DNA from: a virus
Length of the DNA: 64,000 nucleotides
Reading direction: 5' to 3' (one strand)
Virus record (IMG/VR): IMGVR_UViG_3300009117_000044
Coordinates: 4,688 to 68,687 of that record
In this document: in pieces, positions 28,377-48,017 of the stretch
Numbering within the stretch: the first letter of the stretch is position 1
Layout: each line of letters begins with the position of its first letter
Program-made: the position numbers and the translations under genes
Notes under the pieces: model-generated
What the model saw: the letters and a program-made list of their open reading frames with translations, nothing else
Database searches by the model: none
What the model was told of the DNA's origin: nothing

Positions 28377-28829
28377 TCAAAAGTGCTCATTGCTGTTCAA
28401 CATTTGAATAACAATTGGATTTTCAGGTACGACAACGTGATTTAAGGCATTGCCATGCCATCTGCGAATGGTACTCTTATCAGCATTCAGCTCATCGCCG
28501 ATTTGCTCCCAGGTAAAGTTATGAACGTAGCGGTAACGTAACACCATGCGTTCATCGATATCCGTTACTTTATTAATCACATCTCGAATCTCTGCTTTAA
28601 GTGCTACAAGATGATCCACCTCATCATTAATCTTGATTTGAAGTTCTTCAATTCGCTCCAGGTATCTGACAAACAAGGCATCGGTATGCCGCTGGGTTTG
28701 TATTCTCTCACCCCAACTAGGGGAGGAAACACTGGTCGATAGCTCCCTTAGCCTTTCCATTTCCTCAATGTTGGATTGGATTCGTTTATCTAGCCTGTAG
28801 GCTTGATGTAAATATTCTTTTGCTTTCAT
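28377..28829 (-). CDS. DUF1492/ArpU-like late transcriptional regulator
   Basis: MKAKEYLHQAY, VLRYRY..NFTWEQI..EL....STIRRWH..AL HTH. Confidence 0.8.
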   Translation of the reverse strand: MKAKEYLHQAYRLDKRIQSNIEEMERLRELSTSVSSPSWGERIQTQRHTDALFVRYLERIEELQIKINDEVDHLVALKAEIRDVINKVTDIDERMVLRYRYVHNFTWEQIGDELNADKSTIRRWHGNALNHVVVPENPIVIQMLNSNEHF

Positions 28830-29050: not shown

Positions 29051-30414
29051 CGCATCACCTCTAAATTCGCCTTTACCGCATCAATCAAGGCATCTTGAGT
29101 TTTCTCCTTTTTTGTGAGTGCAAGCAGCACGTCTTCATCGATGGTGTTTTTGGTGATGATGTGGTGGACAATAACTGTATCACTTTGACCCTGCCTATAA
29201 AGTCTTGCATTAGTTTGCTGATACAGCTCTAGTGACCAGGTCAGACCAAACCAGATCAGAGTCGAGCCGCCGCTTTGAAGATTAAGACCATGACCTGCAC
29301 TGGCTGGATGAATAACAGCAATGGGTATCTTGCTATTATTCCAATCCTCAATATCCTTCGATGACTGAATTTGTCTGACCGGAAATCGATCTTTAATTCG
29401 TTCTAAATCATGCTTATACCAATAAGCAACAAGGACCGGTTTCCCATTAGCTCCTTCGATTAAATCTTCCAAGGCATCTAGCTTTTTGTCATGAATCACA
29501 TGAGCCTTATTCTCGCTATCGTATACTGCACCATTTGCCATCTGTAGCAGTTTTCCAGAAAGGACTGCCGCATTAACCGCATCAATATCTTCATCACCTA
29601 AGTTAGCCACCATGTCTTCCTTGAAATCTGAGTAAACCTTCCATTCCTTATCACTTAAAGTGACAAATACTTCATTGCTGACATATTCAGGCATCTTGAG
29701 ATAATCAGTAGATTTCATAGAAATGGTGATGTCTGATATTTGTTTGTAGATTTCCTCTTCAGCGCCGGGTAGTGGTTTATAAGAAAATATAATCTGAGCA
29801 TTTCGCTTATCTGGCTTAAAATAGGTATTTCGATAATGACTAATGTAGCGTCCAAGCCTTTGACCCAAATCAAGAATTCGAAATTCTGCCCATAAATCCA
29901 TCAATCCATTACTGGAGGGAGTACCAGTAAGACCGACAATTCTTTTTACAGAGGGTCTTACTTTAAGTAGACTCTTAAACCGCTTTGCGCCATAAGACTT
30001 AAAGGATGACAATTCATCAATGACCACCATATCAAAATGAAAAGGAATACCACTTTTATGAACCAGCCAATCTACGTTCTCACGGTTGATAATGTATAGC
30101 GTTGATTGTTTTTTGAGGGCATCGATTCTTTCTTTTTCCGTTCCCACTGCCACTGAATAAGAGAGTCCTTTTAGATGATCCCACTTTTTGATTTCTGCAG
30201 GCCAAGTATCCCTTGCTACTCGAAGTGGAGCAATGACTAGCACTTTACATACGAGAAAACTGTCTAAACACAAATCAAATATGGCGGATAAGGTAATCAC
30301 ACTTTTACCTAAACCCATTTCAAGAAATACAGCCGATATGGGATGGGATAAAATGAATTCAGTGGCATAGCTTTGGTATTCATGTGGCTTGTATTTCACT
30401 AAGTATCCCTCCAA
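29047..30414 (-). CDS. SNF2-like helicase
   Basis: MGLGKS, VIDELS, LTGTP, HPASAGHGLNLQ, QTNARLYRQGQ. Confidence 0.92.
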   Translation of the reverse strand: MEGYLVKYKPHEYQSYATEFILSHPISAVFLEMGLGKSVITLSAIFDLCLDSFLVCKVLVIAPLRVARDTWPAEIKKWDHLKGLSYSVAVGTEKERIDALKKQSTLYIINRENVDWLVHKSGIPFHFDMVVIDELSSFKSYGAKRFKSLLKVRPSVKRIVGLTGTPSSNGLMDLWAEFRILDLGQRLGRYISHYRNTYFKPDKRNAQIIFSYKPLPGAEEEIYKQISDITISMKSTDYLKMPEYVSNEVFVTLSDKEWKVYSDFKEDMVANLGDEDIDAVNAAVLSGKLLQMANGAVYDSENKAHVIHDKKLDALEDLIEGANGKPVLVAYWYKHDLERIKDRFPVRQIQSSKDIEDWNNSKIPIAVIHPASAGHGLNLQSGGSTLIWFGLTWSLELYQQTNARLYRQGQSDTVIVHHIITKNTIDEDVLLALTKKEKTQDALIDAVKANLEVMR

Positions 30415-30661
30415 TCTGTTCTATATCATCCAGGCAATAGACTAGAAAGCCTAATGCCTCTAATTGCTTCTTTCTTTTATTTTGTAAAGGTCGCATCTTT
30501 TTCCCTGTTGCCTTACATTCGACAAAGGCGATTCTTCCCATGGGAAGTAATACAATGCGATCAGGCATTCCATCTATTCCAGGACTCACAAATTTCGGGG
30601 CAATACCTCCCATGCTTTTTACTGTCGCTACCAGTTTTTGTTCTATATATTTTTCTTGCAT
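30380..30661 (-). CDS. VRR-NUC domain nuclease
   Basis: EKYIE, GMPDRIVL, FVECKA, RPLQ. Confidence 0.88.
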   Translation of the reverse strand: MQEKYIEQKLVATVKSMGGIAPKFVSPGIDGMPDRIVLLPMGRIAFVECKATGKKMRPLQNKRKKQLEALGFLVYCLDDIEQIGGILSEIQAT

Positions 30662-30684
30662 AAATGACCTCCAACAATTCATCA

Positions 30685-30968
30685 GGAACAACAAGCACAA
30701 CTTTTAACGTTTTTTCCTATACGCGCGCATACACACGCTCACGATGCTTTACTACTACTATTTATTAATTTATTACTAAGTAGTAAAACTCTTGTTCCAC
30801 TCATTCCAGTAAAGCCAAAATGTCGGTAATGACTGGGTTTTTAAGAGAACAAGCATAAGGAACAACTAAGGAACAATGAACGACCTTACTCATTCTTCTC
30901 GTAACAACGTTGTCTACCGTAAATGGGAAAATTACTTGTTCCATTCTTGTTCCCTTGGTACTTGTTCC
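30685..30968. repeat. GGAACAA repeats around an AT-rich palindrome, candidate replication origin
   Basis: GGAACAA at 30685, 30859, 30870; TTGTTCC at 30792, 30936, 30947, 30962; TTTACTACT..AGTAGTAAA around AT-rich core 30748-30787. Confidence 0.55.
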
Positions 30969-33243
30969 ACCCATTAATCTTTTTCATAATGCCTGCAATG
31001 GCATAAGAGTCTGCAGGTTTCATGGCGGAGGCATCCCTTCCAAAGCATTCACACCAAATTTCCATATTACAAACAAGCGTACGTTCAACCGTACCGACAC
31101 GGGATTCCCCACCAAATTCACTACCGTTTAGGTAGTTTCTTCGCTCGTATAAGGACAGGGCATTCCAATCATCGGGTAAAAGCGTATCGAGATAGCTGCG
31201 AACAAGGCCTTCTCGCTCATCACTTTCCATGGCATCTGCCTGCTCATTCGTTGCCAACTCTACATCACTGCCCTCTAAATAGAGCTTTTCACCTTTGGCA
31301 TAAAGCACCAAAGTTTCTGCCCAAATCTGCTCTACATCGTATACGGACATCTGCCATGCTTTTCTTTTACCATCACCACTAATACGCACTGGCCAGAATC
31401 TTCGGTTACCCGTGATGTCTCGCAAAAATCCACTTTCTGCATTGGTAGAGCCGACAATGATACATTGACGAGGATGGCTTTCAACATTCACCCCATAACT
31501 GGCACGGTATTTATCATCGGATCTTGAAATAAAGGATTTCACGACTTCTACATCGGTTTTTCGCATGCCAGCTAGTTCACCCAGTTCTAAGATCCAATAC
31601 CCTTGAAGTTTCTCAGGGCCTGCTTTGTCTTTCATATCGGTGAGGGTTAAACTATCGGAAAACCAATCGCCTGCAAGCTTTGCAAAGAAGGTAGACTTAC
31701 CGATGCCTTGTGGTCCATTCAGAATTAAAACGCTGTCGAATTTCGTACCAGGTTGAACAATTCTAGCGACTGCTGCCACCATCATTTTTCTAGTAACGGC
31801 TCTGGTATAGGAATTATCTGTTGCATTAAAATAATCAATCAGTAAGGTCTCAACGCGATCGGTTCCATCCCAATCTGGTAGATGATCCAGGTATTCTTTT
31901 ATAGGATGATAGGATCGCTCTGCTGCGACTGCTAGTATTGCGTCCTTTGTTTTGGTTGGGGAGTAGATGCCATATTTATTAGACAGATAAACTTTAAGGG
32001 CTGCATTATCTGAATCATTCCAGCCGCCCTTCATTTGCTCCCAAGGCAATCCTTCTCTTGCATCGATTCCATCACGGTGCTTATTAAAAGCAATGGATTC
32101 TAGTTCTGAATCGTTACGGATGATGAGAACGATATTATCCAAGGTGTCCTTAATCTTTCCTTGCTTATCCAATTCAAGGGCTGTCTGCCAGTTGTCTTCA
32201 GTAAAATCGATTGTTGCCTGTTCCATCCGCTCTTTCGTAAACTGTGCTTTTACTTCATCGTCTTGGATAGCAAATTCACACATGTTGATAAAGGATGGTA
32301 GTTTACTTGGTGGCGTACTTTCTGTTGCCCTATCATCTAAATGACCAAATCGATGGATGCGAACAAGGTCAAAAGCATTAAGCAGTCTCCCACTTGCAGG
32401 ATCTGTTGCGTGATGGGAATAGGAAAACTTATCATCATAGAGTATGACCCCGGCACTGGAATCTGCAGGGATATAATCATAGCGACCAGCCATTACTGAA
32501 GGCTCGTATATATCCTTTAAGAACCTATCGATTGCACTACTTACTGAGTAAGTACGGCAAAAAGTACCGATGACACCTTCCTTAGAAAGCGGATCGGCTT
32601 GTTCTTTTAATGAGCGGTCAAGGACTTCTGACTGCCTAGAGGATACCGGCCAAGTACTGGTATCTCGCCAATCATCGTATTTATTTAGAAATACATCAGG
32701 GTCTAAGAGAGAACCGTCTTTTTCTTCATACACAAAGACACCGTTTCTAGAGGTAGACGGCCAATACATTAATCGTTCTGGTTCATAGGTTGTATCATCA
32801 AAAAGGTCGATGCCGATTTCTTTTGCGACCATGCGACTAACGGCTGCATACTCTTCCTCTCCCAAATCACGAAAGAGAGGAATAATCAGTCTTAGTCTTG
32901 GATGTTCTGGAGTATGCTTATGAGTAGAATAAATACAACACTGATAAGGGAAGAAGGTAGAGATTTCTTCCCAGATAGTACTTGTGCCATAATCCATATC
33001 AAGGGTGAGCATGGATCGTGATAGAACATTCCCTTTTTTACGTCTACCATCTTTTAAATGACCGCCTACAAAACCTCCCACATCTTTAATGGAATCTTGG
33101 CCACCTTTTCTCATTTTTCGATATTCTTCTACGGTTTCAGTAGTACGCTGTGTGGTCTTAACACGGGAACAGAAATCTTCCCAGTTAATATCGCTGTTTT
33201 TCCACTTTTTATCCATTCGGCTATTGCCGTATGCTATCTTCAT
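30886..33243 (-). CDS. Primase-like plus VapE-family helicase
   Basis: YSTHKH..PRLR (primase-like), GPQGIGKST Walker A, ILELGEL, DITGNRRFWP. Confidence 0.9.
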   Translation of the reverse strand: MKIAYGNSRMDKKWKNSDINWEDFCSRVKTTQRTTETVEEYRKMRKGGQDSIKDVGGFVGGHLKDGRRKKGNVLSRSMLTLDMDYGTSTIWEEISTFFPYQCCIYSTHKHTPEHPRLRLIIPLFRDLGEEEYAAVSRMVAKEIGIDLFDDTTYEPERLMYWPSTSRNGVFVYEEKDGSLLDPDVFLNKYDDWRDTSTWPVSSRQSEVLDRSLKEQADPLSKEGVIGTFCRTYSVSSAIDRFLKDIYEPSVMAGRYDYIPADSSAGVILYDDKFSYSHHATDPASGRLLNAFDLVRIHRFGHLDDRATESTPPSKLPSFINMCEFAIQDDEVKAQFTKERMEQATIDFTEDNWQTALELDKQGKIKDTLDNIVLIIRNDSELESIAFNKHRDGIDAREGLPWEQMKGGWNDSDNAALKVYLSNKYGIYSPTKTKDAILAVAAERSYHPIKEYLDHLPDWDGTDRVETLLIDYFNATDNSYTRAVTRKMMVAAVARIVQPGTKFDSVLILNGPQGIGKSTFFAKLAGDWFSDSLTLTDMKDKAGPEKLQGYWILELGELAGMRKTDVEVVKSFISRSDDKYRASYGVNVESHPRQCIIVGSTNAESGFLRDITGNRRFWPVRISGDGKRKAWQMSVYDVEQIWAETLVLYAKGEKLYLEGSDVELATNEQADAMESDEREGLVRSYLDTLLPDDWNALSLYERRNYLNGSEFGGESRVGTVERTLVCNMEIWCECFGRDASAMKPADSYAIAGIMKKINGWNKYQGNKNGTSNFPIYGRQRCYEKNE

Positions 33244-33674
33244 AAAGCCTCTACCTCCTCAAAATCCTTATTGAAATATCTGACCGGTTGTCTACGTTTC
33301 TTTGCCTTTTCTATTTCAATACTCATGCCTCTTGAGATCACATCACCTAGAACCCAGACCTCTTGGCATTTGCCCATCAGGATAATATCCATAAAAATAG
33401 CGAGCTCACGTTCTTTCTCATTGCTGTCATCCATAAACTGTGGAAATAAAAGGTGAGGAGCAAGCGGAATATTGCCCTTATCTAAAGCAAAACGGCAAAA
33501 TGATCGTGTGCGCTTATTGTTGTTTTCTATATCGCCACTAAAGGGAGAGCAAATATAGACAAGGGGCTTAAAGGCAGCTTTTGCTGCTGCCTTTTCCTCA
33601 CGGGTGATATTGCTAAGTGCTTCATGGGGAGTTGTGTCATAATATCCTTCTGCATTGAATTTATTGATTCCCAT
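33240..33674 (-). CDS. DUF4406-like protein
   Basis: LVYICSPFSG, PLAPHLLFPQF, CQEVWVLG..IS.GM..EI. Confidence 0.8.
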   Translation of the reverse strand: MGINKFNAEGYYDTTPHEALSNITREEKAAAKAAFKPLVYICSPFSGDIENNNKRTRSFCRFALDKGNIPLAPHLLFPQFMDDSNEKERELAIFMDIILMGKCQEVWVLGDVISRGMSIEIEKAKKRRQPVRYFNKDFEEVEAL

Positions 33675-33675
33675 A

Positions 33676-34458
33676 TCACACCTCCATCTCAATCTGCGGA
33701 TAAATACCATCCGCCTTTAGCTGTTCATAGATAAAGAGTCTGCCTTTTTGTGTCCACTTGGTATGCACTTTCGTATGTTGGATACCCTTACTATCTTCAT
33801 AAATGTGAGTATTAGTCTTGGTATATCCATTAGGAGCATACTTTTGATAAAGAAGCCAAATATCGCCTTGTTTAAACTGAATCCCTTTTTCATGAAGGTA
33901 TTCGTTCATGCGCATGGCACTCCAGCCATAATCTTTAGCAATCACAGAAATATTGACTGCATCCCTGCATTTAAGAACCACATCATAATAAGTAGCCTTG
34001 GGTTTCATCTCAGCGATTTGCTGTTGACCAATCGCAACGGCCGCCATCAGTTCCTTGTTCTTTTCTCGTTCCTCTTTCAATGCAGTAAATGCAGCAATAG
34101 CAAGGTCTGGATTTGCGATTAAATCGTCTGTTGCATAAAGTCCATGTTTGCGAATAGCAGGGAGGACTTCACTTGTCACCCAGCGTTTGAACTTTTTAGC
34201 ATTTGGCATCTTGCTTGAGAGGATGAGACTATACAGACCAGACTCGTTGATAGCAGTCATCGTTTGATTTCTTCCGATGGCGTCACGAATCGTTACGTCA
34301 TCCTTGTCCTCTTCATCAACATGGTCAATTAAAGCTTTTCGAGTATTTGAGTAACCAAGAATACCAGCTACATCCTTACCCACAAAATAAGGTTGACCGC
34401 CAAGCGTTGTAGTACGTACAGAGCCAAACTCTGCATTTTTGTAAACTTGTAATTCCAT
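33676..34458 (-). CDS. BRO-N/KilA-C antirepressor
   Basis: FVGKDVA.ILGY, INESGLYSLIL.SK, FKRWVTSEVLPAIRKHG, WTQKGRLFIY. Confidence 0.92.
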   Translation of the reverse strand: MELQVYKNAEFGSVRTTTLGGQPYFVGKDVAGILGYSNTRKALIDHVDEEDKDDVTIRDAIGRNQTMTAINESGLYSLILSSKMPNAKKFKRWVTSEVLPAIRKHGLYATDDLIANPDLAIAAFTALKEEREKNKELMAAVAIGQQQIAEMKPKATYYDVVLKCRDAVNISVIAKDYGWSAMRMNEYLHEKGIQFKQGDIWLLYQKYAPNGYTKTNTHIYEDSKGIQHTKVHTKWTQKGRLFIYEQLKADGIYPQIEMEV

Positions 34459-34497
34459 TCGAATTACCTCCTTGTATTTTTTGGAGGTCTTAACCTC

Positions 34498-34537
34498 CTA
34501 CCTAGTAGCCTTGGGAGAAGGTCAAATCTGACGGTTT
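34498..34537 (-). promoter_or_regulatory. Bipartite motif copy B overlapping 3' end of sigma-like gene
   Basis: AAACCGTCAGATT-N14-GGCTACTAGGTAG, matching copy A. Confidence 0.55.
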
Positions 34538-35064
34538 TCAATTTCTTTTCTTAATTTTTGTGTAGCTCGCTTTAACTTCTGGGTAATGTTGTTTTCACTT
34601 ACACCGATGGAACTGGCATATTCTCGAATCGACATACCGTCAATTCGTACTGCAATGAACATATCTGCCCAGTCCTGTTTTTTACCAAGAGCGGTACGTA
34701 TCCATTTGCAGACAGATTCGTACTCATCTTGGAGACTCTGTTCTATCTCCTGAGAATTATCAGCGAAAGTATCCATGACATCTATTTCAACTTCATCATC
34801 TTTTCGATAAGGTGTCTTTGGATTACCAAGATGCCTATGGTAGCGACGCCAATGGTTATATTCCTTGTTGTTCATGAGGTCGAACATTTCTTGTAGAGTC
34901 TCGCAGCGTTTCACCTCTTCCTTCTTTTCAGGCTTTGCTTCTGCAAGACGTTGCTCATAGTCGATATCCAGCATGACGCTGTAATCTCCATCTGGAATTT
35001 CAATTGTGGTGTAGTTCTTGTGACCGTTTTTGATGTTGTCTTCATATAAAACTCGAATCTTCAT
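34522..35064 (-). CDS. Sigma-70 region 4-like transcription factor
   Basis: C-terminal HTH GMSIREYASSIGVSENNITQKLKRA; first large gene of early operon. Confidence 0.8.
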   Translation of the reverse strand: MKIRVLYEDNIKNGHKNYTTIEIPDGDYSVMLDIDYEQRLAEAKPEKKEEVKRCETLQEMFDLMNNKEYNHWRRYHRHLGNPKTPYRKDDEVEIDVMDTFADNSQEIEQSLQDEYESVCKWIRTALGKKQDWADMFIAVRIDGMSIREYASSIGVSENNITQKLKRATQKLRKEIENRQI

Positions 35065-35067
35065 AAA

Positions 35068-35350
35068 GTATTCCTTTCCGCCTAGTCATTGGGCGGCGGA
35101 ATACAAAAAGAGCCTGCGGTGAAGATGACCACAGACTTCGCATGTCCTAAAAAAGGGCACACGAAATAACGGTGGGTGCATCTTCATTCCAAACACAGTC
35201 TTTATCACTGTGTTCTGAACTCTTATGCATCCCGCCGTCCGTATGCGCACTAGGGACTTTGAGATTGATTTTTGAGCGATAACCGCTCTGGTAAATAACT
35301 CCCTTAGGGAGGATAGGTAGGCTGATTATTCAAATCTGTCTCTACCTATC
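35068..35350 (-). promoter_or_regulatory. Structured 5' leader (candidate cis-regulatory RNA) with RBS-occluding hairpin
   Basis: Stems at 35312-35350, 35299-35311, 35274-35288, 35174-35233, 35068-35104. Confidence 0.55.
35105..35139 (-). terminator. Intrinsic terminator directly upstream of sigma-like gene
   Basis: GAAGTCTGTGGT/ACCGCAGGCTC stem then TTTTTG. Confidence 0.65.
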
Positions 35351-35364
35351 AATTTGGATAATGT

Positions 35365-35508
35365 TTACTTCTTCTTGCATGGTCTTGTTTGACTTAAAGC
35401 ACTGCCTGCAACCGATTTGGCTTTCTTGCTGTAACGTCCATCGCTAAGAATTTTGCTTGCTTTTGATGCAACTCTTTTTGATGTTTGCTTCGAATTACGT
35501 TTTGCCAT
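35365..35508 (-). CDS. 47-aa basic peptide, absent from ORF track
   Basis: AAAGGAGG SD; MAKRNSKQTSKRVASKASKILSDGRYSKKAKSVAGSALSQTRPCKKK. Confidence 0.75.
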   Translation of the reverse strand: MAKRNSKQTSKRVASKASKILSDGRYSKKAKSVAGSALSQTRPCKKK

Positions 35509-35652
35509 TTACGTTCCCTCCTTTCATTTTTTGGATTCATGCATTCATTTTCGTAAATATAATGTAGATTTTCGCAAAGATACATGATAGAATATCTTTG
35601 TTATGCCTTAACTAAATGATGCTGGTTTAAATCCTATCTACATAATATAAAA

Positions 35653-35706
35653 ACCCACCTTTCGAACTGGGTACGTTCCAGGTCGAAGATGGGTACAAAG
35701 TGGGAC
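35653..35706. promoter_or_regulatory. Imperfect inverted repeat, candidate operator
   Basis: ACCCACCTTTCGAACTGG..CCAGGTCGAAGATGGGT plus TGGG(T)AC repeats, between divergent units. Confidence 0.4.
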
Positions 35707-35731
35707 AACTATCTTGAAAGGAGTTAACGTA

Positions 35732-36853
35732 ATGGAATTTAATGATTTCTTCAATCTAATGAAACCTGTACTAGGTAAAGAAAGAGCAAATGCTAAGTTG
35801 GTGCGAAACCTAATAGCTATGATTACTAAAACTGATAGCGATGTTGACCCTTCTCAAGATCAGTCAGATGACACTTTGAAATCTTATGCAAATGGAAAAA
35901 GACCTCTGTCTCCTGAATATGCTAGAGGAATAATCGCAGAGATTGAATTTCAAAATTTTGTTGATTCGGTGAATTCAAACGATGAGGTTGTAATTGAAAG
36001 ACTATCAGATAGTTTTAAACCGTATGATTCAACAGTAACTCCTGATGTAGTGGGCACAGTTGCAGGAAAAATTTTCTTAGAAATCCTTTATAAAGCTGCT
36101 GGTGAAAACACTGATGTGCAAAAGTCCTTAATGCCTTCAAAGTATTATTTAAGACATAGATATGGAAATCAATTGTTAGTAGAAAACAAGGGAAATTGCC
36201 CTTTTAAGGGGTGTGGTAAACCCCTCTTATTGAGTAACAACGAAGCAACACAAGCATATTTTGACGTGATTATGATAGATAGTGAAAGTGGAGAGCATAG
36301 CGAAAATTTAATTGCTCTTTGTCCAGAATGTGCAGCAAAATATTTACTATCTCATACAGAAGAAGAACAAATCGAGTTGCAGGATTTAAAGATATCTATG
36401 TATGAACTTTTATTAGCTCAGAAGTCACTTACAGATATAAAAGTTGAAGAAGCCATATCGGAAGTTTTGGAAGTTCTTTATGTAACTGATCCAAATGAAA
36501 TCACCAAGTTAAATTATGAACCACAATCCGTAAGAGATAAGATTTATAAGAATAATTACCTCTTATTAAGAACTAACATTTTTAATGTGACTCAGTATTA
36601 TCCGTTTATTGAAACACAGTTTAAATCTTTGTCTAGAGAAAAGAAAATGAATTACAATGTGTTGTCCTCGCAAATAAGACTTGCGTATGTCACAGCATTA
36701 GAAAAAACAAGTGTGCAAGACGAAATTTTTAATTCCCTCGTTGAGTGGCTTATGGGAATCACAAAAAAGCCAAGAGTAGCCTGTGAGATAGTTATTTCGT
36801 TTTTTGTACAGAAATGTGAGGTATTCGATGCTCCTTCCAAACAAACTGTTTAG
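35732..36853 (+). CDS. lmuA: LmuA-like ABC-three-component protein: HTH-like N-terminus, degenerate HNH/Zn finger, C-terminal domain
   Basis: SD GAAAGGAG; CPFKGC..NLIALCPEC; C-terminal KI..N..YY..IE..F..L..CEIVISFFVQKCEVF typical ABC-3C CTD; operon context. Confidence 0.75.
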   Translation: MEFNDFFNLMKPVLGKERANAKLVRNLIAMITKTDSDVDPSQDQSDDTLKSYANGKRPLSPEYARGIIAEIEFQNFVDSVNSNDEVVIERLSDSFKPYDSTVTPDVVGTVAGKIFLEILYKAAGENTDVQKSLMPSKYYLRHRYGNQLLVENKGNCPFKGCGKPLLLSNNEATQAYFDVIMIDSESGEHSENLIALCPECAAKYLLSHTEEEQIELQDLKISMYELLLAQKSLTDIKVEEAISEVLEVLYVTDPNEITKLNYEPQSVRDKIYKNNYLLLRTNIFNVTQYYPFIETQFKSLSREKKMNYNVLSSQIRLAYVTALEKTSVQDEIFNSLVEWLMGITKKPRVACEIVISFFVQKCEVFDAPSKQTV

Positions 36854-37070
36854 CTATAAAGAAAGTACCCTGGCTAAATTTCCAGTACTTATAAAGTGCT
36901 TGAATAATAGACCTTACTCGGTAGAGGAATTATATAACACAAACAAAAGACTGTTTTTAGATATAGAAGATTATACAGAAACGTTATGCTGTCTTTATGC
37001 ATTAAGAAAAATCGAACTCGATGAAGAAAGGGGCGTGATTGTCTATGTTGAAGAAGATTCAGTGCGATAA
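36828..37070 (+). CDS. lmuC: ABC-three-component middle component (LmuC-like)
   Basis: MLLPNKLFSYKESTL..L..LYAL.KI motif; overlaps both neighbours. Confidence 0.75.
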   Translation: MLLPNKLFSYKESTLAKFPVLIKCLNNRPYSVEELYNTNKRLFLDIEDYTETLCCLYALRKIELDEERGVIVYVEEDSVR

Positions 37071-38682
37071 ATTTATTTCCAAAGGGCAAGTGCGTCCACC
37101 AATAGAGTTTAAGAAGGGGCTTAATACGATTCTTGGAGGTGTGAATGCTAATAACTCCATCGGCAAATCAACTTTGCTACTTATTATTGACTTTGCATAC
37201 GGCGGAAACTCCTACCTTGATAGCGATGCTGTAAACCAAGTGGGACTTCATACAATTAATTTCGAATTTGAGTTCAATGGTACATCTTACTTTTTTTCTA
37301 GAAGTACCACGCAGAGAACTACAATTAATAAATGTGATGAGCAATTTAATTTTATTGAGGAAATTAACATTAAGGACTTTTTGTCTTTTTTACAAGAACA
37401 GTATGGAGTTAATTTTTATGGAAGTTCATTTAGAGAGCTAATTAGTCGCTACTTTAGAATCTATGGAAAGAACAACCATGACGAAAAGAAACCCCTACAT
37501 AGTGATCCAAGAGAAAAAAATGTAGCCGCAATTACTGCATTAGAAAAGTTATTTAACTCATTTGAGGTTATTGAGTCATATAGAACAGAATTTAAAAAAG
37601 TATCTGACAAACTTGATGCCCTCAAGAAAGCAAAGAAACAAGATGTTATCTCGTACGGCTCTATCACAACAAAGAAGCGTTATAACGAAAATCTTAATGA
37701 GTTAGAAAAACTCAAAGATGACTTGAGAGATCACACTGTCTCTAATAACTCCAAATATGTAGACCTTGATTTGAAACAGGCAGATCAGATAAGTCAAATC
37801 AAGACTCAATTAAACATTTTGATGAGAAACAGAACGTCAACTAAAACACAGTTAAGTCTTGTTGAAGACAATCTCTCTTCAAATCCGGAAGTTCATCATG
37901 GTCCTTATGAAGAGTTAGAGCAGTTCTTTCCCGGGGTTAATATTCGCAAAATATCTGAAATCGAATCTTTTCATGAAAAATTAAGTGAAATACTGATGGC
38001 TGAATATGAGCAACAGAGAAAAGAGTTGAGCAAAAATCTTGAACGGTTAAATCATGAAATTGATAGCCTGAAAAATCAGCTTTCTAAGCATGGAGAGCCA
38101 GCAAACTATTCAACTACTTACCTGAATAAATACAAAGAGTTAAATCTTGCTATAGAAAGACTTGAAGCGCAAAACCGGGATTATATTTTGGTTGAGGAAT
38201 TAAATGTTTCAAAGAAGGGTGTCAAAGAACAACTTCAGAAAGTTGAAGAAGCTGAATTGCGTAGGATTGAGAGCAGCATCAATGAGCAAATGGTGCGATT
38301 TAACGATAGAATCTACGAGAAAAAAAGAAAAGCTCCTGTGCTAGATTTAGACAGTGGTACAACTTATGAATTCTATACACCTGATGATAGTGGTACAGGA
38401 ACTTCATATAAGAGTCTTATTGTATTTGACCTCAGTGTTTTAGAAACAACTATGTTGCCTGCATTGGCACATGACTCTCTTCTATTTAAAAACATTGGTG
38501 ACGAACCGCTCAATAAGATTATTCAGCTATACACAGAGTTTGACAAGCAAATATTCATTGCTTTTGACAAAGGCGAATCTTACTCTGAGGAAACTAGTCA
38601 AATTCTTAATAGTACTGCTGTCATTCGCCTTAACGAAAATGGCGATGAACTATTTGGACGCTCATGGAATATCAAGGAGTGA
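37045..38682 (+). CDS. lmuB: SMC-like ABC ATPase, DUF2326 (LmuB-like)
   Basis: Walker A NSIGKST, long coiled coil, SGTGTSYKSLIVFD, HDSLLFKNI, QIFIAFD. Confidence 0.85.
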   Translation: MLKKIQCDKFISKGQVRPPIEFKKGLNTILGGVNANNSIGKSTLLLIIDFAYGGNSYLDSDAVNQVGLHTINFEFEFNGTSYFFSRSTTQRTTINKCDEQFNFIEEINIKDFLSFLQEQYGVNFYGSSFRELISRYFRIYGKNNHDEKKPLHSDPREKNVAAITALEKLFNSFEVIESYRTEFKKVSDKLDALKKAKKQDVISYGSITTKKRYNENLNELEKLKDDLRDHTVSNNSKYVDLDLKQADQISQIKTQLNILMRNRTSTKTQLSLVEDNLSSNPEVHHGPYEELEQFFPGVNIRKISEIESFHEKLSEILMAEYEQQRKELSKNLERLNHEIDSLKNQLSKHGEPANYSTTYLNKYKELNLAIERLEAQNRDYILVEELNVSKKGVKEQLQKVEEAELRRIESSINEQMVRFNDRIYEKKRKAPVLDLDSGTTYEFYTPDDSGTGTSYKSLIVFDLSVLETTMLPALAHDSLLFKNIGDEPLNKIIQLYTEFDKQIFIAFDKGESYSEETSQILNSTAVIRLNENGDELFGRSWNIKE

Positions 38683-38687
38683 GAATT

Positions 38688-38909
38688 ATGGGTATCAGTC
38701 TAAGCTACAACCGATTATGGAAACTGTTGATAGATAGAGGAATGACTAAGCAGGATCTTCGAAAAATCACAGGTCTAAGCTCTGCCTCAATTGCTAAGTT
38801 AGGCAAAGGTCAGAATGTTAACACTGATGTACTAATTAGAATATGCAATGCGTTGAACTGCGATTTACACGACATGGTAGAAACTGTTCATGATGAAAAT
38901 ACTATATAG
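38688..38909 (+). CDS. Cro/C1-type HTH protein
   Basis: SYNRLWKLLIDRGMTKQDL..SSASIAKLGKGQNV.TDVL.RIC.AL. Confidence 0.88.
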   Translation: MGISLSYNRLWKLLIDRGMTKQDLRKITGLSSASIAKLGKGQNVNTDVLIRICNALNCDLHDMVETVHDENTI

Positions 38910-38937
38910 AATAATAAGATAAGAGGAGGTATGGGTT

Positions 38938-39834
38938 TTGACAATGACATTTGGTGCTGCTGAGCATCGTATACTCGATATGTTTAAAATTGGAACACGT
39001 TTTATATTTGATGACATTGAATATGTTGTTACTGTTTCTGGTAAACCCACTTGTAGTAAAGGTGAACCCAAAACAGATATCTATATAGGAGCAAAGAGCT
39101 CCATTAATACAAATAAAGAATTTAAGATTTCATTCAAAAAGATTAACGCTGATTTTCTAGAAAATAAGACTAATGCAGAACGCGCCGAACAATTACTTGG
39201 AAGCGAATGGGATAATATTATCGCAATGGCAACATCTAATATTAAGGATGCTTTTCTTTCAAGACCGTTAATTTATAGAGAAAAGTTTGGAAGAACTGAT
39301 GCGGGAGCAATTACATTAGGCTGGAAGTTTGAACTTCTAAATGTCCTAAGCGGTCAGTTAAGCGGTGTCATAGACCTCTCAAGAGAACAAGTTATTGATG
39401 TTTATGCAGGTACTAATCTCGCGGGTGATAAAAAGGATTCAACAGTCAATCGTATCATAGTTCCCAACAGTGGAATTTCAAACTATATTCTTTTTGAAAA
39501 TAAAGCATTTGGCAGTGTCCAACAGGTAATTGATTCACTAATAACCGTAGAGGATTATGTTGAATTAAACCCCAATGTATATTTTGCATGTAAAGCCTTA
39601 AACTATAGAACTTTTAAGAAAAAATATGACGGTAATAGACCTCTCGCTGTTTATGTTGATTGGTTTGTAAGAGAAGGAAAATTGGCATATAATCTTAATT
39701 TCGATACTCCATTGAAGCAAGGTGGTAATTATGCTTTCGCAAGATTAAAATCCGCGTTAGATGCTCTCGGTGTGGAAACAACAAATGACTTAAATTCATA
39801 TAATGTAGAGAATAGTAATATAATATTTGGCTAA
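38938..39834 (+). CDS. Putative type II restriction endonuclease
   Basis: EPKTDIY...KISFK resembles a PD-(D/E)XK active site; convergent with C5 methylase; family not assigned. Confidence 0.6.
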   Translation: MTMTFGAAEHRILDMFKIGTRFIFDDIEYVVTVSGKPTCSKGEPKTDIYIGAKSSINTNKEFKISFKKINADFLENKTNAERAEQLLGSEWDNIIAMATSNIKDAFLSRPLIYREKFGRTDAGAITLGWKFELLNVLSGQLSGVIDLSREQVIDVYAGTNLAGDKKDSTVNRIIVPNSGISNYILFENKAFGSVQQVIDSLITVEDYVELNPNVYFACKALNYRTFKKKYDGNRPLAVYVDWFVREGKLAYNLNFDTPLKQGGNYAFARLKSALDALGVETTNDLNSYNVENSNIIFG

Positions 39835-39875
39835 AAAAAGATGGTGCCTATCAAAACTTAGGCACCATCTTTTTT
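39833..39875. terminator. Bidirectional intrinsic terminator
   Basis: AAAAAAAGATGGTGCCTA/TAGGCACCATCTTTTTT between convergent genes. Confidence 0.85.
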
Positions 39876-39877
39876 AG

Positions 39878-40879
39878 TTACTTAAGAACTTCTTTAATTG
39901 CCACTGCAATCTCATAAGCAAGATTAACTGGAACAGCATTACCGATCATCTTGTATGCATTATTAACATCAGTATATATAAACTGAAAATCATCTGGAAA
40001 ACCTTGGACTCTAGCAATTTCTCTTACTGTCATTCTTCTATACAGTGACTCTTTGCCTTCAACAAATCTACAGTCATTCTTTCCTACCTTTACCATTTTC
40101 GGTGCTTGTGGATGCAACTGGCATTGTCTTCCTGAGGCTTGTACGGTATAAGCTTGCTCGTCCCAAGACTTTACCCTATTTCGGCTCATAAAAATTGGCG
40201 AGAAAGCTCCTGTAAAGAATTCATTATTGTTTTTTGCATTAGGATTATGCTTGTTTTTATCTGCGGCAGGAACTGCAGTATCCTGTAAATCCCAGATAAT
40301 ATCTCTAAGCGTAATTTTCTTATCATCCGAAACGGTTGACCCCTCTGGAAAATCAAACTTGATATTTAAATCTTTTCTAAATCCTATATAGAAAACTCTC
40401 TTTCGCTCTTGTGCAACACCATAATCCTTAGCATTAACCATTGTTAAAGATACATTATACCCAGCGTCTTCAAACATTTTTAGAATGTTTTGTACTGCAT
40501 CTGAATGTCTATTCGCAAGCATGCCACTTACATTCTCTGCTAGAAAAAATTTTGGTCTGAACTCTTTTAATATTCTAATATAGTCAAAGAAAAGTTGACC
40601 TCTCTCATCCTTAATTCCTTTAAGAGAGCCTGCCTCTGACCATGATTGACAGGGAGGACCTCCAATTATTCCATCAATATCTCCGTTTAAGTATTTTTCC
40701 ATATCAACTTTGGTAACTTGACGAATGTCACCCTCTATTAACTTAGTATTAGGATGATTAACCTTGTAGGTACTCCAAATAGTTTTATCAAAATCGTTAG
40801 CAACAGGGATTTCAAATCCTGCCCGTTCAAATCCTAAATCTAAACCACCGCAACCACTAAATAAACTAATAATCTTCAC
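39878..40879 (-). CDS. C5-cytosine methyltransferase, M.HaeIII-like (probably GGCC)
   Basis: [28 protein letters not shown]; target region [27 protein letters not shown] matches M.HaeIII as recalled; GTG start overlaps upstream TGA. Confidence 0.9.
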
Positions 40880-41094
40880 TCTTTTTCCTCCCAAACTTTT
40901 CTATCAACATCAAAAGGCAAGTTGTTTATGTTACAGAACTCTTTTATTTTCTGCAATGCTTGATAATTGGGAGTTGCTTTTCCATTTTCCCAACGATTTA
41001 CTGTAGAAAATGAAACACCTAATGCATGAGCAAAATCCGTCTGACTTAAAAGACATTTTCGTCTTATATTTTTTATTGTTTCACATAAATCCAC
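40876..41094 (-). CDS. XRE HTH, candidate R-M controller protein
   Basis: [30 protein letters not shown]; coupled to methylase. Confidence 0.8.
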
Positions 41095-42163: not shown

Positions 42164-45100
42164 TCATTCCTGTGCTGTTTCAGTATCAATGGCAAGTTCC
42201 ATAAAACGCTTGAGCATAGCAGAAACCTCAGCTCTGGTTGCCATACCCTGGGGGTCAAATACATTGTTACTCTTCCCGCTGATAATGCCTGCCAGCTGTA
42301 CTTTTTCCACAGCATCTTTTGCCCATGTGCCAATCTTAGCATTATCGGCAAAGGTGCTCACTTCGTTCACCTTTGGCAATGCAACCCCCATAACCTTGGT
42401 GTAGTTATTCAAAATAACCGCCATCTGCTCACGGGTAATTGACTGGTCAGGCGCAAACTTTCCATCTTCCATGCCAGTTACAATATTATTCTTACTTGCC
42501 CACTCAATATATGGCATATAGTAAGCATCATTTTTCACATCGCTAAAGCTGGTATTGGTGTATTTCTCTGTGTCCACCTCCGCCATTCTCCCAAGGGCGG
42601 TTACAAACATACCTCTCGTCATGGATGAATCTGGGCTAAAAGTAGAAGCAGAAGTGCCGCTGAACAATCCACGGCTTACTGCAAACGCAATGCTTTCCTT
42701 CGCCCAATGGTTTGTAATATCAGTAAACTCCGAATTTGTCTGTTTATAACCTATGCCGTAGGTAGAGAAGTGTTTTGTGCTAAAGCGAACCACCTTTTTT
42801 GTCCTATCATAGACAGAGTCAGTCAGCCACTCCACCTTGCCGTTATCGTCTATATAAACCGCACAAATATTGTCTGCTTCTTCATTTTCGCCAAGCGTAT
42901 ATGGAATTTCCACCGTTATGCTGCCTTCACCGAAATTTTCCACCTGTCTACCGCTGCCGTAATTTACCTTGAGGACAAAGACAGGACGAGAGCCAACTGC
43001 CTCTTTTGCTTCATCCGTCAGCCCTTTATTATCTGCCTTTGCAGCCGTAAGATTCACATCTGTTTTTGCCTGTTTATTGATTTCTTCCACAGCAGTTAAA
43101 TCCATACCGATTAAAATATCAGGACTATCAACCATGACAACTGTGCTGACAATTTTTTTGCTGATGATAGCATCCTGCACTGCCTTTGGCAAATTAACGG
43201 TCATAGTGTTCGCCGTTTGATTGCCTGTATCTACACTCAGCACAAGGGTAATTCCATTTTCCTCGTTGCCATTTTTCTTTGCATCGGCAATGGCCTTATT
43301 AAAGACATCCGTAACATTCTTATCAGTTATGGTTATGGTGACATGATTATTTTGGTCAACCTTGCCACTTAATATGATTTCCCCCTGCGTTGGAGTGCTT
43401 GGTTGTTCTGCTGGAGGCGTAATTACAATAATTTTGGAAGCACTGTCATTGTTATTAATAATGTTATTGCTATTACTTCCGCCGCCGCCGGAACTACCAC
43501 CGCCTAAATATGTCCAGCGGGCATAAATGGTGTCATTGCCTGTAAAAACAGTATCAGTGGTCACCTGTGTGCCGCCGCTTAGCGCTGTAAACCAACCATC
43601 ATAACGATAGCTGCCGCTTCTTGTGGGCGTAGGCAGACTTGCAAGCTTGCCCTCTAAGCTTGTTGCTGTAGTGGTAGGGGTAACCGTGCCGCTGTTTGCA
43701 TCAAAAGTAATGATGCAGGCACCTGTTACAGTAAAGCTTATATCAAAGCTTTGCGCAGTGATGTCGCTTGCGTTACCGCTCGCCTTTTCCACGGTTACCG
43801 TTGCAGTATAAACACCCCCAGCAAGGCCTGTGCTTGGTTTTACGCTAAAGGTATCATTGCCGCTTGCTGCAATGCTATCAATACTTGTTTTATTCAGGGT
43901 AAAACTGCCGCTGTTTGCACCAGAAAGTGCTACGGTCAATGCGCCAGTAGGCTGATTTCCAGTGTTACTTACCTGCACAGTGAGTGCGCCTTGTTCCCCA
44001 TAGCCCACAATTGCCCCAGCAAAGATGTGGGTACCTGTTTTATCCAAGCTGATTCCATAGGTTGGCGTTGGGCTGTATGCCCCAATGGTAAAGGTGCTTT
44101 CAGCGCCTGGGTTATGGGTTTCAGTTTCTTTCACACGCACCTTATACTCGCCGTTACTTAGCCCCGTGATTGTGCTGCCAGTGCCATCTGTCCAGTCTGC
44201 ATCACTTGACATTTTATATTGCATATCAGTGGTCACACCAATGAGTGTGCCATCGTTGTTGTCTGCCGTCGTGCAGTTTGTTACAGAAACACCGCTTACC
44301 GCTAAGCCATCTGCTTTTGCAATCGTCCCAGTTGTACTGCCGCTGATTGCACCTGTTTGAGCATCGCTTGTTACTTCACAGGTGATGGTGTTGCCAATAT
44401 CTTCCTGAACTGTGGTGTAGGTTGCATCTGTGCCCAAATTCGTGGCGCCACGCTTCCACTGATAGGACAGCGTGCCTGTGTTGTTGTCACCACTTAGCGT
44501 TGCCGTAAGAAGTTCATTAAATTTTAAAGTGCCGCTGATTGTCACTATGCCCGTAAATGGTTGATTTTCCCAAACTGCATACACCGTTGTGTCCTCAGTA
44601 AAGGTATGTGTACCCCCTGCTGCCACCTTCGTGCCATCTGCACTTCCTATCGCCCATTCCTTAAACTGCTTACCCACAGGCGGAGTGAGGGTACAGCTTG
44701 GCAAGGTGAAGGCTATATCTTCCAATGCTGTGCCTGTGCTCATCGTGCCTGTGCCACTGTTATTATCATAGGTTACGGTATAGCTGGCAGGTGTATTATT
44801 CACCTGTAAATAGCACTGGGTAAGATCTTCTAATATGGTTGATGGTTCCACAAGGGTATCATAGCTTGTGTCATCTGCAGAGGATAAAAATGACTTTCCG
44901 CTGCCAAGTAATGTGGAAGCCTCACTTTGAGGTGCATCAACACCACTCGGGTCGATAGCCCTTCCAGAGTTGCCACTCTTTAGCGTACCTCCGTTTAAAG
45001 TAACGCTATTTGAACCAACCGACATAGCACAACCATGCTTAAAGATGCCCTCACCGCCCGTAATCGTTCCATTATTTACTATAACGGTGGCACCAGCAGC

Positions 45101-46591
45101 ATAAGCACTAATCCCTATGCCACCATACCGGTAGCCGCTACCACCCGTAATCGTTCCATTATTTACTGTAAGAATACCCGAAGTTATACTTATTCCACTA
45201 CCGTTGTAATCACTCCCGTCAGCGCCACTACCGCCGGTAATCGTACCATTGTTTACAGTAAGGTTGCCCGCAACAACTTGTATGGCATAACCACCACTAC
45301 CGTTGTTGTTGGTAAACCTACCACCAATAAAGCTTCCTCCATCAATGATGAGGTTCGCATTTGAATGATTTACAAATAAAGCTCTCGCACCACCAGCACT
45401 TATATTAAAAGAACCAATAATGCTGCCGCCGCCGCCGCTGTCTTTTATGGTTAGCGTGCGTGCTGCACTGTGACTGATTGCCGCATAGCTGGCAGTATCG
45501 GTAATCGTTTTACCATTTAAGTCCAAAGTGAAATCCACTGCTTTTGTGGTAACAGACGTTGTAAGGTCAACGTCCTCCAAAAGCTTTATGGTCTGCTCAT
45601 TTTCAACCGCATCCACCGCTGCTTGCAGGGTTTCGTAGCCTTGGCTTGTTTCTTCGATAGTGGCAACAGCTGGGGTTCCTGGTTCAATTTTCACATATTT
45701 ATTGTTCATATAGGTAGTACTATTTGGCGATGCAACAATGGCATTATTTGTGCTGCTTTCCCCCGCCGTTACCTGTGGAGTATAGCTAGCACTGAAGGAG
45801 GGCACTTTGTCCATAGCCCGAGAAATGCCACCTTCTTCCACCGAACTGCCGTTGGCGGTTACCGTCCCTCCATTGATGGTAACGCTATTATTAATCCTTA
45901 ACCCATAGCTAAAAGGTGCAGCTCCCCCCGTAGCTGTTAATGTGCCATCATTTATAACACATTCAAATACATGTGCACCATAACTGCAATACACAGATAC
46001 CTCTGCAGCGGCTATCATAGTTCCTCCGTTATTAATTGTTAAATTTCCATAAAAACCAGTGCCAAACGCGGTTCCTTGGGTTGCTCCAGCTATGGCGGTT
46101 ACCGTAGCAGCACTATCTATAGTAGTGCGGTAAGAATATATTCCACTGCTTTGATAATTGGTAGTACTATTGATACTGCCGCCTTTTGCGGTCAGCGAAC
46201 CACTTCCGGTTATCACTATGTTGCCAGCCACATATACAGCGCTGTTGTAGCCTGTTGTTGTGCTTGACGAAGAAATATCAACGGTATTGTCTCCAATAAG
46301 CACGATATTCAGGGCTTCTTGTGCGTATATTCCAAAAAGGCTGGTCATGTCAGCGACTGGTTTATCAACAAATGAACCCCACGTTGTGATGTTAGCATTG
46401 GTAAGGGTGAGGGTTTGGGGTGTCTCCCCATCGGCAGGGGTGTAGCTCCAGCCCACACCGCTGTCGTTCACAGAGGTTACCTGCGTGCCGCCCACCCAAA
46501 CGTTATAACTTTCAAAAGCAAATGCCGTTGCTGGCAACATGGTAAACACCATACACACTACAAGAAGCATTCCAAGTATTTTCTTTCTCAT
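42164..46591 (-). CDS. Large secreted surface protein with beta-helix-like repeats, InlB B-type repeats and C-terminal SLH domains
   Basis: Signal peptide MRKKILGMLLVVCMVFTMLPATAFA; VNNGTITGG repeats; VTYDNNSG..VYAVW and ITFDANSG..YARW; FTDITNHWAKESI, MTRGMFVT, ITREQMAV, ATRAEVS. Confidence 0.9.
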   Translation of the reverse strand: MRKKILGMLLVVCMVFTMLPATAFAFESYNVWVGGTQVTSVNDSGVGWSYTPADGETPQTLTLTNANITTWGSFVDKPVADMTSLFGIYAQEALNIVLIGDNTVDISSSSTTTGYNSAVYVAGNIVITGSGSLTAKGGSINSTTNYQSSGIYSYRTTIDSAATVTAIAGATQGTAFGTGFYGNLTINNGGTMIAAAEVSVYCSYGAHVFECVINDGTLTATGGAAPFSYGLRINNSVTINGGTVTANGSSVEEGGISRAMDKVPSFSASYTPQVTAGESSTNNAIVASPNSTTYMNNKYVKIEPGTPAVATIEETSQGYETLQAAVDAVENEQTIKLLEDVDLTTSVTTKAVDFTLDLNGKTITDTASYAAISHSAARTLTIKDSGGGGSIIGSFNISAGGARALFVNHSNANLIIDGGSFIGGRFTNNNGSGGYAIQVVAGNLTVNNGTITGGSGADGSDYNGSGISITSGILTVNNGTITGGSGYRYGGIGISAYAAGATVIVNNGTITGGEGIFKHGCAMSVGSNSVTLNGGTLKSGNSGRAIDPSGVDAPQSEASTLLGSGKSFLSSADDTSYDTLVEPSTILEDLTQCYLQVNNTPASYTVTYDNNSGTGTMSTGTALEDIAFTLPSCTLTPPVGKQFKEWAIGSADGTKVAAGGTHTFTEDTTVYAVWENQPFTGIVTISGTLKFNELLTATLSGDNNTGTLSYQWKRGATNLGTDATYTTVQEDIGNTITCEVTSDAQTGAISGSTTGTIAKADGLAVSGVSVTNCTTADNNDGTLIGVTTDMQYKMSSDADWTDGTGSTITGLSNGEYKVRVKETETHNPGAESTFTIGAYSPTPTYGISLDKTGTHIFAGAIVGYGEQGALTVQVSNTGNQPTGALTVALSGANSGSFTLNKTSIDSIAASGNDTFSVKPSTGLAGGVYTATVTVEKASGNASDITAQSFDISFTVTGACIITFDANSGTVTPTTTATSLEGKLASLPTPTRSGSYRYDGWFTALSGGTQVTTDTVFTGNDTIYARWTYLGGGSSGGGGSNSNNIINNNDSASKIIVITPPAEQPSTPTQGEIILSGKVDQNNHVTITITDKNVTDVFNKAIADAKKNGNEENGITLVLSVDTGNQTANTMTVNLPKAVQDAIISKKIVSTVVMVDSPDILIGMDLTAVEEINKQAKTDVNLTAAKADNKGLTDEAKEAVGSRPVFVLKVNYGSGRQVENFGEGSITVEIPYTLGENEEADNICAVYIDDNGKVEWLTDSVYDRTKKVVRFSTKHFSTYGIGYKQTNSEFTDITNHWAKESIAFAVSRGLFSGTSASTFSPDSSMTRGMFVTALGRMAEVDTEKYTNTSFSDVKNDAYYMPYIEWASKNNIVTGMEDGKFAPDQSITREQMAVILNNYTKVMGVALPKVNEVSTFADNAKIGTWAKDAVEKVQLAGIISGKSNNVFDPQGMATRAEVSAMLKRFMELAIDTETAQE

Positions 46592-47219: not shown

Positions 47220-47259
47220 AACATAGTGTCGAAAAATATAGTTTTTGTGTTATAATTGA

Positions 47260-48015: not shown

Positions 48016-48017
48016 AG

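Follow-up and report, generated by a model that had tools for sequence, protein, structure and literature searches.

The minus-strand open reading frame at 35365-35508, 47 codons long with a product of 47 aa, is by its pattern of substitutions a genuine and strongly constrained gene, and the best reading of its surroundings is that the Shine-Dalgarno sequence, the frame and a covarying pair of RNA hairpins behind the stop codon form one accessory cassette in this prophage lineage. We tentatively take the product, at a little under an even chance, to be an accessory and putatively nucleic-acid-binding micro-protein tied to the defence-cargo border of the prophage; judging from related loci, it is probably not an antiterminator of the leader behind it. 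The gene lies in the window, the whole 64,000-nucleotide stretch of viral DNA analysed here, and is present in a single copy in the 75.8-kb IMG/VR provirus record containing the window. The peptide is among the most conserved genes of very widespread gut and environmental Bacillota prophages, including Candidatus Heliusvirales records. Our analysis separates three things that had previously been merged: a portable peptide-RNA cassette, an independent terminator-containing leader and a hot spot for defence cargo. New here are the covarying hairpin element, which is absent from Rfam, the independence of the leader, the tracking of cargo and the stand-alone copies of the gene elsewhere.

The 47-codon gene and its predicted protein

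Two features define the start of the unit:

35517-35524, minus strand: Shine-Dalgarno sequence AAAGGAGG, read directly, 8 nt 5' of the ATG
35365-35508, minus strand: gene for a basic 47-aa protein of the PHROG 5079 family, predicted to be a helical hairpin (homology, codon pattern, AlphaFold2 (AF2))

The strong Shine-Dalgarno sequence and the basic frame (11 K, 4 R, 1 D) described by the first-pass annotation are both present, with the product as quoted; there is no E (0), and the net charge is +14. The overlapping wrong frame that it mentioned is probably a 63-aa ORF at 35394-35585, on the same strand in another frame, which contains stops in 51 of 64 homologous genes, and its placing of the peptide gene first in the unit is true by position. 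Its word "unannotated" holds in part: homologues stand in public records as "hypothetical protein", some of them as an N-terminally over-extended ORF of 98 aa.

Substitution patterns single out the coding frame. In pairwise comparisons of 64 distinct homologous genes, differences at codon positions 1, 2 and 3 numbered 21.8k, 18.6k and 52.8k, and synonymous changes made up 61% of differing codons in frame as against 4-6% in the shifted frames; the other two frames are broken by stops in 51/64 and 63/64 of these genes. The MAK start and the Shine-Dalgarno sequence are conserved among relatives and the frame 5' of the start is not. Homology among peptide-bearing loci begins exactly at the Shine-Dalgarno sequence, the sequence upstream being unconserved, and their promoter region varies with the adjoining cargo.

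The homologue searches that had been proposed as a check on conservation turned up hundreds of relatives. The peptide matches the PHROG 5079 profile over its full length with an E-value of 6.7e-22, its residues 3-47 aligning with positions 5-49 of the 49 in the profile, and its relatives form 666 protein clusters (90% identity clusters, E<=1e-3), or 376 at the 50% identity level. Members of the PHROG include phiC2 p57, B166 ORF09 and Javan630_0053; Streptococcus phage Javan630 is the nearest named phage, with a 91% identical peptide and the same gene order, and some relatives are filed under Candidatus Heliusvirales. Pfam and NCBIfam searches with the peptide gave nothing above noise, PADLOC models matched neither the peptide nor seven relatives, and a search for longer fused forms found only N-terminally over-extended ORFs and no fusions to other domains. 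A literature search for the conserved motif (N-x-K-Q-T-S-K-x-V-A-S-K-A-S-K-I-L-x-D-G-R-Y-S-K-x-x-K-S-V-A-G-S-A-L-S-Q in the consensus) found no paper, and the Heliusvirales paper does not discuss the peptide or its neighbouring genes.

Purifying selection is strong along the whole peptide, and its basic C-terminus is conserved. The peptide remains about 80% identical where the sigma-like protein encoded behind it is 30-40% identical and the ABC-3C proteins are 25-45% identical, and its identity is 74-98% across hosts of several phyla. Relatives were located at 254 viral loci, and close single-repeat relatives at 289 places in species-representative genomes, roughly 540 loci together. Hosts of the latter include Clostridia, Bacilli, Erysipelotrichia, Negativicutes, some Actinomycetota and a Sneathia, with Geosporobacter ferrireducens IRF9, Alkaliphilus hydrothermalis DSM 25890, Dorea phocaeensis and Allofustis seminis DSM 15817 among them; a number of odd host labels on MAGs are probably binning errors. 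In one group of genome loci (L177-L198) the primase is 96-98% and the peptide 91-98% identical across different family or order labels (Clostridiaceae, Erysipelotrichaceae, Allofustis, Christensenellaceae, Anaerorhabdus), a pattern suggesting that this element either has a very wide host range or has spread recently; the Methanolobus, Thermotogaceae and Proteiniphilum labels in this group look like binning errors.

AF2, run on 44 sequences, predicts a confident two-helix hairpin (helices 11-22 and 28-39) with a pLDDT of 86, rising to about 95 between residues 10 and 40. Tandem duplication of the peptide module accounts for many relatives of about 82 aa, and one such two-repeat protein is predicted as four helices (pTM 0.74). 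Single-repeat members are always basic, with net charges of +7 to +15 (n=102); since 7 of 41 two-repeat relatives are neutral or acidic, the fold reads as a scaffold and the basic charge as a property of the phage subfamily rather than of the fold. The single-repeat protein probably acts as a dimer, given that two-repeat relatives are predicted as four-helix proteins; a homodimer prediction from two copies scored 0.02, which we count neither for nor against a dimer. Fold searches with single- and two-repeat models (Foldseek PDB, VIA-align) returned generic helical-bundle or HEAT-like rows with a best Z of 5.7 and none at E<=0.001, an ESM Atlas feature search returned just unnamed clusters of the peptide's own family, and Pfam on 38 two-repeat relatives gave sub-threshold repeat-like matches only. 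A ribbon-helix-helix (RHH) repressor, considered for its size and strand-helix-helix order, was rejected: no RHH family in Pfam matches, the N-terminal segment has no hydrophobic residues, and in the AF2 model the strand pairing amounts to a one-residue bridge between residues 9 and 41.

RNA elements between the peptide and sigma-like genes

The first-pass annotation had placed hairpins and a terminator-like site between the peptide gene and a sigma-like gene, and they are indeed found there. We divide them into a module A, next to the peptide gene, and a module B, next to the sigma-like gene:

35292-35353, minus strand: module A, a covarying two-hairpin RNA element directly 3' of the peptide stop codon
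35312-35350, minus strand: RNA hairpin 1 (covariance model R1, 77 bits)
35299-35311, minus strand: RNA hairpin 2, CUCCC-UAA-GGGAG, abutting hairpin 1
35065-35288, minus strand: module B, leader of the sigma-like gene, conserved at 73-94% nucleotide identity in peptide-less loci
35274-35288, minus strand: small 5' hairpin of module B
35111-35137, minus strand: terminator stem, with a T run at 35101-35110 (terminator scan)
35098-35104 with 35068-35074, minus strand: hairpin masking the Shine-Dalgarno sequence (consensus fold)
34522-35064, minus strand: sigma-70 region-4-like regulator, first gene after the leader (phrog_11138, E 2e-32; TIGR02937, E 4e-8)

The spacer between the two genes is 300 nt long and non-coding. 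It is 85-93% identical in nucleotides where the sigma-like protein is 63-66% identical, and so outconserves its protein, which itself falls just under the cut-off of Pfam Sigma70_r4_2 (E 2e-5).

Hairpin 1 has a 9-bp lower stem, a bulged purine-rich middle and a 4-bp GAUU/AAUC top, and begins 14 nt past the stop codon in the window. In many very different loci it starts 7-17 nt past the stop and has a 9-10-bp stem of variable sequence, with the bulged middle and the GAUU/AAUC top conserved across loci; hairpin 2 of relatives is short and G+C-rich, lacks a U tract and frequently closes on a UUCG or GNRA-type loop. Model R1, made from 22 sequences, gave matches in 38/58 sources and 50/80 genome loci, once per locus and only directly behind the peptide gene. 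Among 33 distinct sequences, both partners have changed in 10 of the 15 pairs of hairpin 1, and pairing holds in 90% of cells, values that 0 of 500 shuffles reach and that slid controls fall far below. G-U pairs are common and scores on the reverse strand far lower, both of which indicate that module A is an RNA on the peptide's strand. The hairpin pair makes a well-supported candidate new family of structured RNAs. An Rfam search of window positions 30000-40000 at E<=1 gave a chance match at 35972-36051 as its sole result, and none for the hairpins or the leader.

Other interpretations of module A fared less well. A DNA palindrome or operator is less likely in view of the G-U pairs, the UUCG or GNRA-type loops and the low reverse-strand scores. 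A promoter in hairpin 1 (TTGATA-16-AATAAT) was rejected as a general feature: its -35 lies within the covarying stem, and its -10-like loop is lost in GC-rich variants. Hairpin 2 was rejected as an intrinsic terminator, as most relatives have an A-rich tail there and not a U tract.

Module A travels with the peptide gene. In loci without the cassette, peptide and module A are missing together while module B stays, and fully peptide-less loci lack module A too. Decayed peptide copies (L109, 1030-1200; L128-L131, 1090-1200; L064, 4000-4140), broken by stops, an internal deletion and in one case an in-frame TGA, still precede module A. In another phage lineage (L055, L058, L074, L235, L239, L249, L252, L256) a different conserved 3' element, ACCGAGCAACGGAGCCGAGUGCGAGCUACC followed by a long terminator hairpin, takes up the place right behind the peptide stop codon and might be another structured RNA partner.

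Module B also holds a long interrupted hairpin, and its consensus fold has 7 compensated pairs; the hairpin masking the Shine-Dalgarno sequence shows a compensated U-A to C-G change. Of 80 loci collected via the sigma-like protein, 64 have comparable upstream flanks, and an intact peptide gene is absent from 44 of these, including four with a decayed copy. In peptide-less loci detected by blastn, the leader survives between about positions 93 and 300 with 73-94% nucleotide identity, a part comprising the long hairpin, the terminator and the Shine-Dalgarno-masking hairpin. Because the same leader and terminator are kept in the peptide-less loci examined, control by the leader is, on this comparison, independent of the peptide, and module B lies outside the peptide cassette. 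By its conservation and consensus fold, module B is a structured RNA in its own right, with no Rfam match.

Two further features of this region deserve mention. A segment in the 3' strand of the long hairpin (GAAGAUG..CCAC) can pair with the 5' arm and loop of the terminator, an attenuator-like layout. In the peptide-less locus L098 (1195-1260), and also in L106, L121 and L136, a strong terminator and then TTGACA beside a perfect palindrome, GGACATG-N-CATGTCC, precede the leader; the two motifs are a candidate early-operon operator and promoter, missing in peptide-bearing phages.

On the 3' side of the sigma-like gene, the minus strand reads on through a Bro-N/ANT antirepressor, a DUF7768 gene (nucleoside deoxyribosyltransferase-like), a VapE-type primase, an SNF2 helicase, a second sigma-r4 protein, terminase and further structural genes. 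The second sigma-70 region-4 protein (DUF1492; 28377-28829, minus strand) is encoded just upstream of the small terminase gene and is likely, from this position, to be a late-gene regulator.

Defence cargo and the distribution of the peptide

Beside the peptide gene lies a cargo of defence genes, for which a related locus offers a useful comparison:

35714-38682, plus strand: divergent three-gene ABC-3C defence operon (CTD11 effector, MC7, DUF2326 ATPase), Lamassu-like (Pfam, PADLOC)
38938-39834, plus strand: type II restriction enzyme (PADLOC REase_II, 5e-50)
39878-40894, minus strand: C5 cytosine methylase (Pfam DNA_methylase, 1e-102)
about 460-1250 of locus L128, minus strand: gene with an LmuA-like N-terminal domain

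The divergent operon had been called Lamassu. In the window it is an ABC-3C system with partial PADLOC matches of LmuA and LmuB type (LmuA N-terminus 8.5e-16, LmuB 7e-6): the LmuA match is limited to the N-terminal 140 aa, the LmuB match is weak, and the PDC-M68A/B and Pfam ABC-3C (CTD11, MC7, DUF2326) matches are better; relatives such as L230 have a full LmuA/LmuC/LmuB set at the same position. On its gene content, this prophage end is a multi-system defence island. The N-terminal ~140 aa of the CTD11 effector (35714-36130, plus strand) match the LmuA N-terminus, and the divergent gene of L128 and L130 starts with a similar domain; an N-terminal module seems common to these Lamassu and ABC-3C effectors. 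Between the ABC-3C gene and the peptide is a long imperfect hairpin (35647-35692, minus strand; ~17 bp, loop AACGUA, then UUUUUAU), unflagged by a simple terminator scan, which on the plus strand falls within the 5' UTR of the ABC-3C operon and on the minus strand would block antisense transcription into the peptide unit. Past the defence genes, the region 42164-51033 encodes an SLH-domain surface protein of 1488 aa, a LytTR response regulator together with a GHKL kinase, and a large serine recombinase.

For a survey of such cargo, defence genes were recognised by PADLOC and Pfam models and by tblastn searches with five sets of queries. Among 140 peptide-bearing loci with enough upstream DNA, 100 had matches to Lamassu (LmuA/LmuC/LmuB), ABC-3C, Hachiman (HamB) or type III methyltransferase; about 40 had no recognised defence gene, and ten neighbourhoods of this latter kind gave no PADLOC system match. 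Loci anchored on the sigma-like gene and compared over equal flanks divided as follows:

Peptide present: defence system recognised in 16, none recognised in 4
Peptide absent: defence system recognised in 0, none recognised in 44

The association has a Fisher p of about 1e-11 on rows that are not phylogenetically independent. Loci with and without the peptide are interleaved at 86-94% identity of their sigma-like proteins to that of the window, and in peptide-less phages the cargo position is variable too, with no PADLOC match in ten tested cases. We regard the tracking of defence cargo by the peptide as a strong lead rather than proof, since the rows are not independent; the correlation may reflect shared descent of one cargo-plus-border block whose defence genes were swapped by recombination. 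The idea that peptide pseudogenes arise on cargo loss is unsupported, as L128-L131 keep a gene with the LmuA/ABC-3C-like N-terminal domain and L109 has LmuA.

The peptide also lives apart from such cargo. In C. difficile phiC2, S. aureus B166, S. gordonii Javan246 and Oscillospiraceae-type prophages its gene stands alone with a plain terminator, points in the direction of the cI-type repressor gene and converges on cro and the early genes, whose 3' end it often overlaps; the loci L229 and L205 show this orientation too. These three named phages carry the peptide without the leader of the sigma gene, a search of their complete genomes for the R1 element found none, and the stand-alone copies have no evident defence neighbour.

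Few neighbourhoods of two-repeat relatives, all on bacterial contigs, were examined. Two lay behind HTH-Panacea genes, one with CBASS next and the other with MmeI; one lay behind a RelA/SpoT toxSAS-like gene with AbiE adjoining, one beside an AAA/S8-peptidase pair, and one amid housekeeping genes (S18, Sua5, an RNase J-like gene, gmk).

Candidate functions and known systems

Under the reading that we tentatively favour, a micro-protein tied to the cargo border, the cassette of Shine-Dalgarno sequence, ORF and hairpins sits at the inner border of the defence-cargo region, present beside Lamassu, ABC-3C, Hachiman and type III restriction genes and absent from close relatives without such cargo. 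The peptide would bind nucleic acid. Because its gene lies upstream of the leader terminator, synthesis of the promoter-proximal stretch of the transcript would suffice for its production, and hence it would be made with the lytic operon shut as well. It could act for the cargo region by controlling prophage-borne DNA-sensing defence systems or keeping them safe, with the 3' hairpins as its own cis element, serving for 3' stabilisation, processing or binding. The earlier suggestion of a nucleic-acid-binding inhibitor or partner of the divergent operon gains comparative support from the tracking of cargo, the binding itself being a putative property. There is no obvious mechanism by which one small protein would serve four mechanistically different defence systems.

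Possible, though on the unlikely side, is that the peptide is an ordinary moron, expressed in lysogeny for a job unrelated to the defence genes (host-target modulation or superinfection exclusion, for example) and merely sharing a variable cargo locus, with hairpins that stabilise or delimit its mRNA. The stand-alone copies in unrelated temperate phages, with their own terminator and in the direction of cI, would fit such a gene, as would its presence/absence polymorphism and occasional pseudogenes; its very high conservation across phyla would suit a conserved host target, and the kind and orientation of cargo change while the peptide stays the same. Weighing against a moron are the peptide-less relatives, 0 of 44 of which have a recognised defence system at that position although variable genes occupy it, and the recurrence of two-repeat relatives in defence or toxin-antitoxin neighbourhoods.

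We think it unlikely that the link to cargo goes as far as a companion module of DNA-sensing prophage defence, in which peptide and hairpins would act as a nucleic-acid-binding "safety catch" that sets the activity of the cargo or spares the phage's own DNA on induction, the two-repeat relatives in bacterial defence islands doing likewise for chromosomal systems. If such a catch existed, a temperate phage could carry abortive or nuclease-type cargo without attack on its own induced DNA. More generally, a functional cargo link would bear on how prophages tolerate or control their own abortive-infection cargo during induction.

The other alternative offered by the first-pass annotation was an RNA-binding antiterminator analogous to lambda N, and here the evidence is mostly against it. 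In its fullest form the proposal is a portable N/nut-like pair: the peptide binds hairpin 1, hairpin 2 or both, polymerase reads through the leader terminator into the sigma-like operon, and cargo-side transcripts escape control. The layout is suggestive, with a highly basic peptide and hairpins that are co-inherited and always lie between promoter and terminator, the conserved bulged bases of hairpin 1 suiting specific recognition and the terminator following about 175 nt downstream in the peptide transcript. What makes the pair quite improbable is the comparative test of whether the terminator depends on the peptide: 44 loci lack an intact peptide, and those examined keep leader and terminator. 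Moreover, phiC2, B166 and Javan246 have the peptide without leader or hairpins, convergent with the early operon and followed by a plain terminator. The hairpin pair stands at the place expected of a nut-like site and is co-inherited with the peptide; these three complete phages, which carry the peptide, have no such element. The peptide also matches none of the antiterminator families in Pfam, NCBIfam and PHROGs, and the Arg-rich disordered N-terminus typical of N is absent from a Lys-rich protein (11 K, 4 R) predicted to fold as a compact helical hairpin.

Membership in a toxin-antitoxin-like family, with the module as a small toxin or antitoxin, is very doubtful. Two independent loci with an HTH-Panacea gene immediately upstream, and another where a RelA/SpoT gene takes that place and AbiE adjoins, would be in keeping with it. 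Yet the gene in the window and most phage copies have no candidate operon partner, the implied roles conflict (a toxin beside Panacea, an antitoxin beside toxSAS), other two-repeat relatives stand in unrelated contexts, and no PADLOC model matches. Least credible of all is a cis-acting leader peptide whose translation or termination steers the folding of the downstream RNA with no trans function: a terminating ribosome could reach hairpin 1 over the short, conserved distance from the stop (7-17 nt), and the basic C-terminus is conserved, but strong purifying selection covers the whole sequence and not just the C-terminus, the protein is also found ahead of plain terminators and in fused two-repeat form, and its predicted fold is confident.

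Among known systems, lambda N/nut (boxA/boxB) has a comparable arrangement, in which a small basic phage protein is likewise encoded at the start of a transcript with an RNA hairpin near and a terminator downstream. Lambda N is about 107 aa long, Arg-rich and disordered, whereas the peptide is 47 aa long, Lys-rich and predicted to be folded, and has no sequence relation to it; the leader and terminator here persist without the peptide, and the peptide occurs without the hairpins in other phages. The put sites of HK022, known from enterobacterial phages, are cis-acting antiterminator RNAs of two stem-loops that need no phage protein. Module A, which we liken to put by description only, similarly has two adjacent stem-loops with conserved bulges upstream of a terminator; it has no Rfam match. 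Rop/Rom of ColE1 is a helical hairpin of about 60 aa from a mobile element, and its dimer is a four-helix bundle that binds structured RNA. The peptide shares with it a predicted helical hairpin and a mobile element as its home; the four-helix resemblance is generic only, single-chain ROP scoring Z 4.4 at rank 13, within noise, and there is no sequence similarity.

Like the peptide, Had1 is a very small phage protein of no known family, and Hachiman is among the systems found beside the peptide. Had1 is a 53-aa anti-Hachiman protein with 23 homologues confined to Bacillus and Paenibacillus phages (bioRxiv 10.1101/2023.05.01.538930). Unlike the case of Had1, the defence system here is on the same prophage and not in an attacked host. 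Judged by distribution, identity with Had1 is unlikely: Had1 is narrow in Bacillus, and the peptide has no match in any Bacillus phage. The PHROG 5079 entry gives no function, structure or context, nor does it cover the RNA element, the link to cargo or the two-repeat relatives. The peptide gene resembles phage morons and prophage cargo in being a small accessory gene, polymorphic in presence and absence, at a prophage edge beside defence cargo, and in other phages it has its own terminator and the orientation of the repressor gene, as morons do. In this lineage, unlike a moron, it has no conserved promoter and no terminator of its own and reads into the early operon, and unlike typical cargo it is far more conserved.
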